Shown here one piece after another: positions 10,928 to 11,476 of a DNA stretch of 38,068 nt. The DNA lies in the IMG/VR virus record IMGVR_UViG_2534682157_000015; one strand, written 5' to 3'. Under the pieces are notes generated by a model. It made no database searches. It was not told where the DNA came from and worked only from the letters and a program-made list of their open reading frames with translations. The translations under genes and the position numbers were made by a program. How positions within the stretch are numbered: the stretch's first letter is position 1; each line of letters opens with the position of its first letter. Origin of the DNA: a virus. Taxonomy: Duplodnaviria > Heunggongvirae > Uroviricota > Caudoviricetes.

Positions 10928-11145
10928 TTTATAATCGCTCCTTTAAAATTGCTGTGGCAATCTGCCATTAAATCCATCTGATTTGATGTGTAATCTAACC
11001 GTATGGTTTGTATGTGTTTGTTGCATGACTATAGCGCATGAAAATGCATGATCGCAAAGGGATCGTTTATGTCTAGGCACTCCAGTTCTGGAGAGGCTTT
11101 GAAGAGTTCATGCGATTGCATGAAAACCACTATGTGAAGTGAGCA

Positions 11146-11164
11146 GGCGTGGCGGGGATACGAG
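11146..11164. other. Candidate cos (cohesive-end) site, GGCGTGGCGGGGATACGAG
   Basis: First 13 nt match the GGCG(A/T)GGCGGGGA start of P2/186 cohesive ends as recalled; lies where cos is expected (between A-side genes and portal). Confidence 0.4.
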
Positions 11165-11476
11165 CGCGCGCAACGTGCATGATATGGCAATATGCATAAC
11201 CTAGTTGATGAGATGTCTTGCCACTAATAATATTAAAACGATTGAAACATGTGTTCCGTCCGTACCATAATCTTTAAGTGGGTGCAGGGCTAAATTGTAT
11301 GATGAAGTATCATATTGCTTCTGAATACTAATGGATAAGTACACGATTGATGTGATGTTATTGCTGACTATTTTTGTTCTAGTCTTACCGAAGACCCAAC
11401 ACGGGAGAAGAAATAGAAATTAATTGCGTGCCCTTTAAGTGCACAATTTAGCAACAATTTAAAAATGAGGTGAACA

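Follow-up and report, generated by a model that had tools for sequence, protein, structure and literature searches.

A probable P2-type cos packaging site between the abutting cargo modules of a P2/186/Fels-2-like prophage

This locus raises the question of what is carried by a 549-bp spacer (10928–11476) between a leftward three-gene operon (8177–10927) and a rightward gene for an HExxH protein (11477–12559), in a stretch of 38,068 nt that was analysed as a whole and is here called the window. An earlier note had described the spacer as free of ORFs of 60 aa or more, which proved right: the longest ORF wholly inside 10928–11476 encodes 53 aa, and a 64-aa ORF (10787–10981) overlaps its left edge only. 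The same note had pointed to a candidate cos site among GCATGA repeats, and had named terminase recognition elements and operators as possible roles of these repeats. Our comparisons revealed that the spacer is composed of three parts:

10928–11021, − strand, leader of the left cargo operon (Hp1-Hp2-Hp3), in the left module and outside cos
11022–11171, cos cassette
11172–11476, + strand, non-coding upstream part of the right cargo module, with a sixth GCATGA copy, a promoter-like site, a palindrome and a Shine-Dalgarno sequence

The middle part is very probably the cos packaging site of a P2/186/Fels-2-type prophage, at which the ends of two cargo modules abut. What was observed in its support comprises homology, the positional conservation of the repeats, the presence of terminase genes and the boundaries of the modules.

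The whole stretch is a P2/186/Fels-2-like (Peduoviridae) prophage, and its genes were assigned by Pfam as follows:

1–1209, − strand, integrase
1449–2105, − strand, 186-type CI repressor
5083–7497, + strand, replication protein gpA
7777–8082, + strand, DinI/Tum-like protein
12694–13740, − strand, portal gpQ
13737–15503, − strand, large terminase gpP (ATPase/nuclease; Terminase_6N 3e-65, Terminase_6C 3.5e-49, Terminase_5 gpP-like 3e-27)
16495–17553, capsid gpN
17557–18207, + strand, small terminase gpM (Phage_term_smal 2.2e-40)

Scaffold gpO, gpL and Ogr were also assigned by Pfam, and the integrase, CI, gpA, Q, P, O, N, M, L and Ogr were all full-length. The terminase genes gpP and gpM look intact by Pfam, and a P2-type terminase is encoded by the same element as cos; by analogy, gpP would be the enzyme expected to cut cos and gpM the expected DNA-recognition subunit. 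The gene order (gpA, DinI, cargo, cos, cargo, Q on the − strand, P on the − strand), with Q read away from cos, agrees with that of P2, 186 and Fels-2. The G+C content changes from ~53–57% in the phage backbone to 30–43% over 8050–12850, which is consistent with imported cargo.

The 19-mer GGCGTGGCGGGGATACGAG lies at 11146–11164 (+). We rebuilt the circular junctions of P2 (NC_001895), 186 (NC_001317) and the satellite P4 (NC_001609) from records in which these ends are annotated, and 11022–11171 aligned with all three cohesive-end junctions over about −125 to +26, counted from the first overhang base; the 19-mer fell base for base on cosL of P2 and on cos of 186 as annotated. The statement of the earlier note that the first 13 nt are those of the P2/186 ends was borne out by the 186 end GGCGTGGCGGGGAAAGCAT, which agrees with the window at 13/13 first bases and 15/19 overall, while the P2 end GGCGAGGCGGGGAAAGCAC is equal at 14/19 bases. 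The 19-mer is GC-rich and starts with GGCG(A/T)GGCGGGG, as do the 19-nt cohesive ends of the P2 family. The sole zero-mismatch match of GGCGWGGCGGGGA within the whole 38,068-nt window was at 11146. A second cos nearer Q was also considered, as cos of P2 and 186 lies ~170 bp from the Q stop, and was rejected, with no cos-like sequence found in 12560–12693. The features of the site are as follows:

11021–11028, + strand, R1 TTGCATGA, distal array, cos left arm
11035–11041, + strand, R2 CGCATGA, distal array, cos left arm
11045–11051, + strand, R3 TGCATGA, distal array, cos left arm
11080–11093, central palindrome CTCCAG-TT-CTGGAG, cos left arm
11108–11113, inverted, R4 TCATGC, proximal repeat
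11117–11128, + strand, R5 TGCATGAAAACC, proximal repeat
11146–11164, + strand, 19-nt 5' cohesive end predicted by homology
11165–11171, + strand, CGCGCGC box, right boundary of the conserved cos

Analysis of the distribution of this site revealed that it is widespread. A blastn search of phage records found the cos block in 60 of them, comprising Klebsiella, Escherichia, Salmonella and Yersinia phages and Fels-2, and the identical 19-mer is carried by Fels-2, Klebsiella ST437-OXA245phi4.1, Yersinia vB_YpM_MLG42 and E. coli vB_EcoM-813R9. A pattern scan of IMG/VR yielded 113 unique viral contigs with enough flank around the core, among which the window's 19-mer was the commonest variant (34/113). 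In Salmonella phage SEN8 exactly the same 19-mer has been annotated as cos (PMC5427200), which is support at the level of annotation. The cos part of the query was matched by 1,156 of 5,426 complete E. coli genomes, the right cargo by none of them, and the window's own variant of left arm plus core occurs at 100% identity in five. The best-conserved part of a 120-sequence alignment was the 55-bp block 11117–11171 (+), from R5 to the GCGCGC box, which aligns with P2, 186 and P4 (TGCAT-AAAACC, 19-mer, GCGCGC) and has the composition of a P2-family core. Its length is that of the ‘55-bp core’ of P2-family cos, credited to Ziermann & Calendar 1990 in PMC5694545 and PMC3931495, and the match is one of length rather than of published boundaries. 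(T/C)GCGCGC follows directly after the 19-mer in P2, 186, P4 and all relatives.

We then analysed the repeats. The count of GCATGA in the window, 28 copies on both strands, showed no overall excess over shuffles (33 ± 5.5). The cluster of at least five copies within about 160 bp that the earlier note had reported was larger by one, with six copies in 11023–11182 (+ at 11023, 11036, 11046, 11118 and 11177; − at 11108), and was beyond chance, since six copies within 160 bp were reached in 0/20,000 uniform placements and 0/300 first-order Markov sequences. This statistic rests on GCATGA, as the first-order Markov control on the shorter TGCAT reached the observed cluster in 81/300 simulations. Five of the six copies are conserved in position in the family, at −124, −111, −101, about −37/−36 and −29 from the cut, and belong to the conserved cos; the sixth (11177–11182) falls outside it, in DNA that occurs only together with the HExxH gene, so that the earlier grouping of the copies around cos held for five of them only.

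In the 113 contigs anchored on the 19-mer, TGCAT was present at −29 in 91%, at −124 and −111 in 53% each and at −101 in 46%, while ATGCA occupied −36 in 63%; when GCATG was counted together with TGCAT, the three distal positions were occupied in 46–60%, and exact TGCAT at each R1–R3 position was present in only about half of the contigs. The density of TGCAT/ATGCA was 3.2 per 100 bp in −140 to −1 versus 0.27 and 0.18 in the flanks (~12-fold). P2 has TGCAT at −123, −111, −101 and −29, distal TGCAT/GCATG elements are also present in 186 and P4, and R5 plus AAAACC occurs in P2, 186, P4 and Fels-2. Both the 19-mer and the GCATGA repeats are thus conserved in related phages. R1–R3 are not included in the 55-bp core, the part to which later papers (PMC5694545 and PMC3931495) refer as the conserved cos region. 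As a side observation, two GATC (Dam) sites in the left arm (11050–11053 and 11061–11064) are invariant in six aligned Fels-2-group sequences and absent from P2.

The fixed positions of the repeats, whatever cargo flanks them, favour terminase recognition over operators. The satellites lead in the same direction. Contigs were sorted by whether they encode a portal or the P4 Psu, with satellites defined by Psu present and portal absent (n = 8), and TGCAT occupied all four forward positions in 8/8 of these P4-like contigs. P4-like satellites rely on the terminase of their helper, and cos is the only region that they have in common with P2-like phages (PMC9122126, Rousset et al. 2022). Since the repeats are kept in satellites that share only cos with their helpers, a packaging role is favoured over regulation of neighbouring genes. 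By analogy, the R1–R5 TGCAT(G/T)A elements are most likely terminase recognition elements, which gpM would be expected to bind; reports of gpM binding to TGCAT elements were not found in the accessible literature searched.

The other role that had been offered for the repeats, namely that they are primarily operators or promoters of the divergent cargo genes and that the cos-like 19-mer is incidental, is unlikely. An exact 13-mer match together with a 150-bp alignment to P2/186 cos is not incidental, the repeats keep their positions next to unrelated or no left cargo as well as in the satellites, and neither cargo module encodes a recognisable DNA-binding regulator. A consensus scan for promoters found 7 promoter-like matches in the region against 8.7 in shuffles, which is no excess, and two of these sites lie where they could serve the cargo genes:

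11028–11057, − strand, promoter-like TTGCGA-18-TATAGT (9/12), candidate for the leftward cargo operon
11242–11271, + strand, promoter-like site (10/12), which could serve the HExxH gene

The leftward site is a point for regulation, since it overlaps R2 and R3 and abuts R1, and both of its hexamers are kept in three left arms linked to Hp1-3 and absent from four others. Moreover, the annotated old-tin transcript start of P2 is at −151/−149 from cos, so that its promoter must overlap the cos repeats (R1–R2). A dual use of the left arm, with a cargo promoter embedded in it, is therefore plausible but unproven, whereas operators as the primary role of the repeats were unsupported.

A homologous but dead cos, left as a relic in a defective and unpackaged prophage, is a very unlikely reading. 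Two differences from relatives could be taken as signs of decay. One is an A in place of G immediately to the left of the cut, where the window has TGAGCA and relatives have (C/T)GGGC(A/G). The other is the central palindrome, which is 6 bp in the window versus 9 bp in Fels-2-type relatives. However, all columns that are invariant among relatives are intact in the window, five complete E. coli genomes have an identical left arm plus core, and two viral contigs have a near-identical whole region. The full-length genes from integrase to Ogr also argue against decay, and the prophage may well have remained inducible, with its 186-type CI and DinI/Tum-like gene pointing to induction by SOS. The palindrome, furthermore, is dispensable in P2 itself. 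At its place relatives have CGCCAG..CTGGCG or GCCCGCCAG..CTGGCGGGC, that is, alternative arm pairs in which both arms changed together. P2 lacks it and its stems are 4 bp or shorter in 58/120 sequences, about half of them, so that it does not count as a universal element of cos. We also considered it as a required cos element or a terminator and rejected both, as a terminator-like form (9-bp GC stem plus TTTTG) occurs only in the Fels-2 group.

That the spacer encodes a small or structured RNA, such as one that regulates the HExxH gene or the defence operon, is highly improbable: about 300 bp (11172–11476) without a convincing ORF, a 10-nt perfect long-range complement (11289–11298 with 11443–11452) and the palindrome at 11428–11444 would suit it, but the predicted folding of 11172–11490 was unremarkable against shuffles on both strands (z = +0.78 and +0.79), palindromes of this class are expected 1.1 times per 549 bp, and the search for a small RNA suggested in the earlier note found no Rfam family above threshold, the sole match being Alfamo_CPB (11010–11140, +; 20.8 bits against a gathering score of 70). 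This match to the Alfalfa mosaic virus coat-protein-binding RNA is due to AUGC repeats that coincide with the TGCAT array in the cos arm. The palindrome itself (GTGCCCTTTAAGTGCAC, 11428–11444) had been noticed earlier just upstream of the HExxH gene. It is present, with 7/8 arm pairs; it belongs to the right cargo module, outside the conserved cos, and is at chance level, as the window contains 77 palindromes of this quality (~1.1 per 549 bp). An operator function for it was rejected on account of this chance level; the copies that exist for comparison are all near-identical. Among the ORFs of 20 aa or more, a 30-aa ORF in the same part (MDKYTIDVMLLLTIFVLVLPKTQHGRRNRN, 11331–11423, +), with a hydrophobic stretch, a basic tail and no evident Shine-Dalgarno sequence, may be a chance ORF in AT-rich DNA.

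Cargo lies on either side of cos. The operon at 8177–10927 (−) gave full-length PADLOC matches to Hp3 (5e-144), Hp2 (5e-245) and Hp1 (4e-234), and its middle protein weakly resembles GapS4b (NCBIfam, E 3e-5, far below cut-off). On these sequence matches it is a predicted anti-phage system as listed in PADLOC, corresponding to ‘3HP’, which came from the screen of the P2 hotspot as a candidate or validated system. The HExxH gene at 11477–12559 (+) has a GTG start at 11477 preceded by the Shine-Dalgarno sequence GAGGTG, and encodes a 360-aa protein with the motif HEYSH, which matched Pfam Peptidase_M48 with 25 bits and the phage-exclusion protease Lit of NCBIfam with E 0.002, far below cut-off. 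It is carried by only two near-identical IMG/VR contigs; relatives were found neither in 50,697 phage records (DNA and tblastn) nor in 5,426 E. coli genomes, nor, as close peptide patterns, in a one-genome-per-species collection, and the protein is absent from PADLOC.

Variable genes between conserved gpA and gpQ, adjoining cos, are what defines the insertion hotspot of this family, and they were found here. The earlier placement of cargo on both sides of cos was correct, and this is the usual, already known arrangement of the gpA–gpQ hotspot next to cos, which PMC5694545 credits to Dodd & Egan 1996 and to Nakayama 1999; Fels-2, vB_EcoM-813R9 and Klebsiella ST437-OXA245phi4.1 likewise have a gene between cos and Q. 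As in the defence hotspot of P2-like phages (PMC9122126), the window has variable cargo against cos and a PADLOC system on one side, whereas its right cargo, the M48/Lit-like HExxH gene, is not in PADLOC.

Two observations were made at the far end of the right module. It reaches ~29 codons into the Q 3' end (12694–12781, −), where G+C is ~34% and DNA identity with relatives is back only at 12782–12806; the last ~25 residues of the portal vary among phages, with the W..F..Y.L pattern kept. The HExxH gene and Q converge, and between their stops there is a perfect 11-bp inverted repeat, CCCAAATGACA ... TGTCATTTGGG (12574–12584 / 12610–12620), which might end both transcripts; its 25-nt loop exceeds the 8-nt loop limit of the terminator scan, which thus left it unreported.

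The boundaries of the three parts were revealed by partial relatives, each of which has one cargo module in common with the window and differs in the other. The prophage of E. coli 20Y000092 (L003) is 99.7% identical to the window over 8001–11171 and then unrelated until 12782, inside the Q 3' end. A viral contig, L133, has the same HExxH gene and is identical to the window from the 19-mer rightward, with flank homology starting at 11022, a Fels-2-type cos left arm and a left cargo unlike the window's. Another, L132, agrees with the window at 99.96% and is in essence the same phage. On the left, 10928–11021 goes together with the three-gene operon, both in E. coli 20Y000092 (99.7%) and in Klebsiella phage ST437-OXA245phi4.1 (86%), and is absent from L133 with its different left cargo. 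On the right, identity with the closest E. coli prophages stops at 11171/11172, and 11172–11476 is present only with the HExxH gene (L132 and L133), with no match in the 50,697 phage records or the 5,426 E. coli genomes. Between the two closest partial relatives, L003 and L133, ancestry therefore switches inside the invariant cos core, 11146–11171.

Comparison of IMG/VR contig pairs showed the same bias. Pairs with the same left flank and a different right one (n = 25) had a median identity of 0.99 in the cos left arm, and pairs with the same right flank and a different left one (n = 25) had a median of 0.53, both being ungapped identities from a small sample of non-independent pairs. The left arm is thus linked to the left flank rather than to the right one, in line with the speculation of Rousset et al. 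(PMC9122126) that the exchange of cargo is promoted by cos ends. Modules could reassort at the cos core either when cohesive ends of different genomes anneal or by ordinary recombination in the only identical stretch, and the pattern fits both alike. We consider it possible rather than probable that the cos core is a preferred crossover point for left and right defence modules and that R1–R3 serve both as a terminase-binding array and as the promoter of the left cargo; these readings, of a crossover at the core and of a dual use of R1–R3, go beyond anything that we found described.

With the site taken as a P2-type cos, its likeness to known sites can be specified. It resembles P2/186 cos in the three distal TGCAT elements, the inverted TCATGC/TGCAT pair, AAAACC, the overhang start GGCG(A/T)GGCGGGGA with GCGCGC next to the overhang, and the position and orientation relative to the portal gene Q and the terminase gene P. 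It differs in the last six overhang bases (TACGAG here, AAGCAC in P2, AAGCAT in 186) and in R5 (TGCATG here, TGCATT in P2/186), and whereas Q follows ~170 bp after cos in P2/186, with a tQ/tW terminator, a 1.5-kb cargo module lies between them here. With the Fels-2 group (Fels-2, SEN8, ST437-OXA245phi4.1, MLG42 and 813R9) the 19-mer and the CGCGCGC box are identical, and 104/213 columns of the group alignment are invariant; the window differs in its left arm, an Hp1-3-linked haplotype with ACTATAGC in place of TCTATGC, CTCCAG/CTGGAG in place of CGCCAG/CTGGCG, and GTGAAGTGAGCA in place of ATAAAGCGGGCA. P4 and P4-like satellites have the same layout of R1–R3, palindrome, R5-AAAACC, 19-mer and CGCGCGC and nothing else in common with the window; the 19-mer of P4 is of the P2 type (GGCGAGGCGGGGAAAGCAC) and is flanked by psu and gop, not by phage genes.

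The cos of lambda consists of cosQ, cosN and cosB, with a 12-nt overhang, the R sites (R1–R3, Nu1 sites) in cosB next to Nu1, and an IHF site. It has no sequence relationship to the present site, whose predicted overhang is 19 nt instead of 12, and the lambda combination of a 12-nt overhang with the Nu1 sites R1–R3 and an IHF site on the side packaged first was not found here. The repeats differ in sequence from those of lambda, and their array and lambda cosB are on opposite sides of the cut, the array of the window being on the side of the genome right end, so that the lambda mechanism is not simply transferable. P2 is reported to package monomeric circles. The general likeness to lambda (PMC4669245) consists of a staggered nick site, repeated recognition elements, a two-subunit terminase and 5' cohesive ends, and lambda cos would thus be a functional analogue only.

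By analogy with P2 and 186, gpM and gpP would recognise the ~150-bp cassette, most likely through R1–R5, and would introduce two nicks 19 nt apart, between 11145 and 11146 on the top strand and between 11164 and 11165 on the bottom strand; for 186 this placement is noted in its record. The virion DNA would then have 5' overhangs of GGCGTGGCGGGGATACGAG and its complement, which would re-anneal after injection, and the linear genome in the virion would begin at 11146, pass the HExxH gene, then Q and P, and continue around via att to end at 11145.

The feature is an ordinary, already known P2-type cos, and its exact sequence variant is widespread. It gives no new insight into packaging, as P2-type cos, the exact 19-mer and two-sided cargo are all documented. 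Locating it fixes the predicted ends of the virion DNA and the edges of the two cargo modules, which helps annotation and the design of cosmids or transducing particles. The modest added value for this phage family is threefold: the TGCAT elements are conserved in position across more than 100 phages and satellites; the M48/Lit-like right-hand gene is a rare and uncharacterised hotspot cargo; and the ancestry switch at the cos core fits the published speculation on cos-driven exchange of defence cargo.
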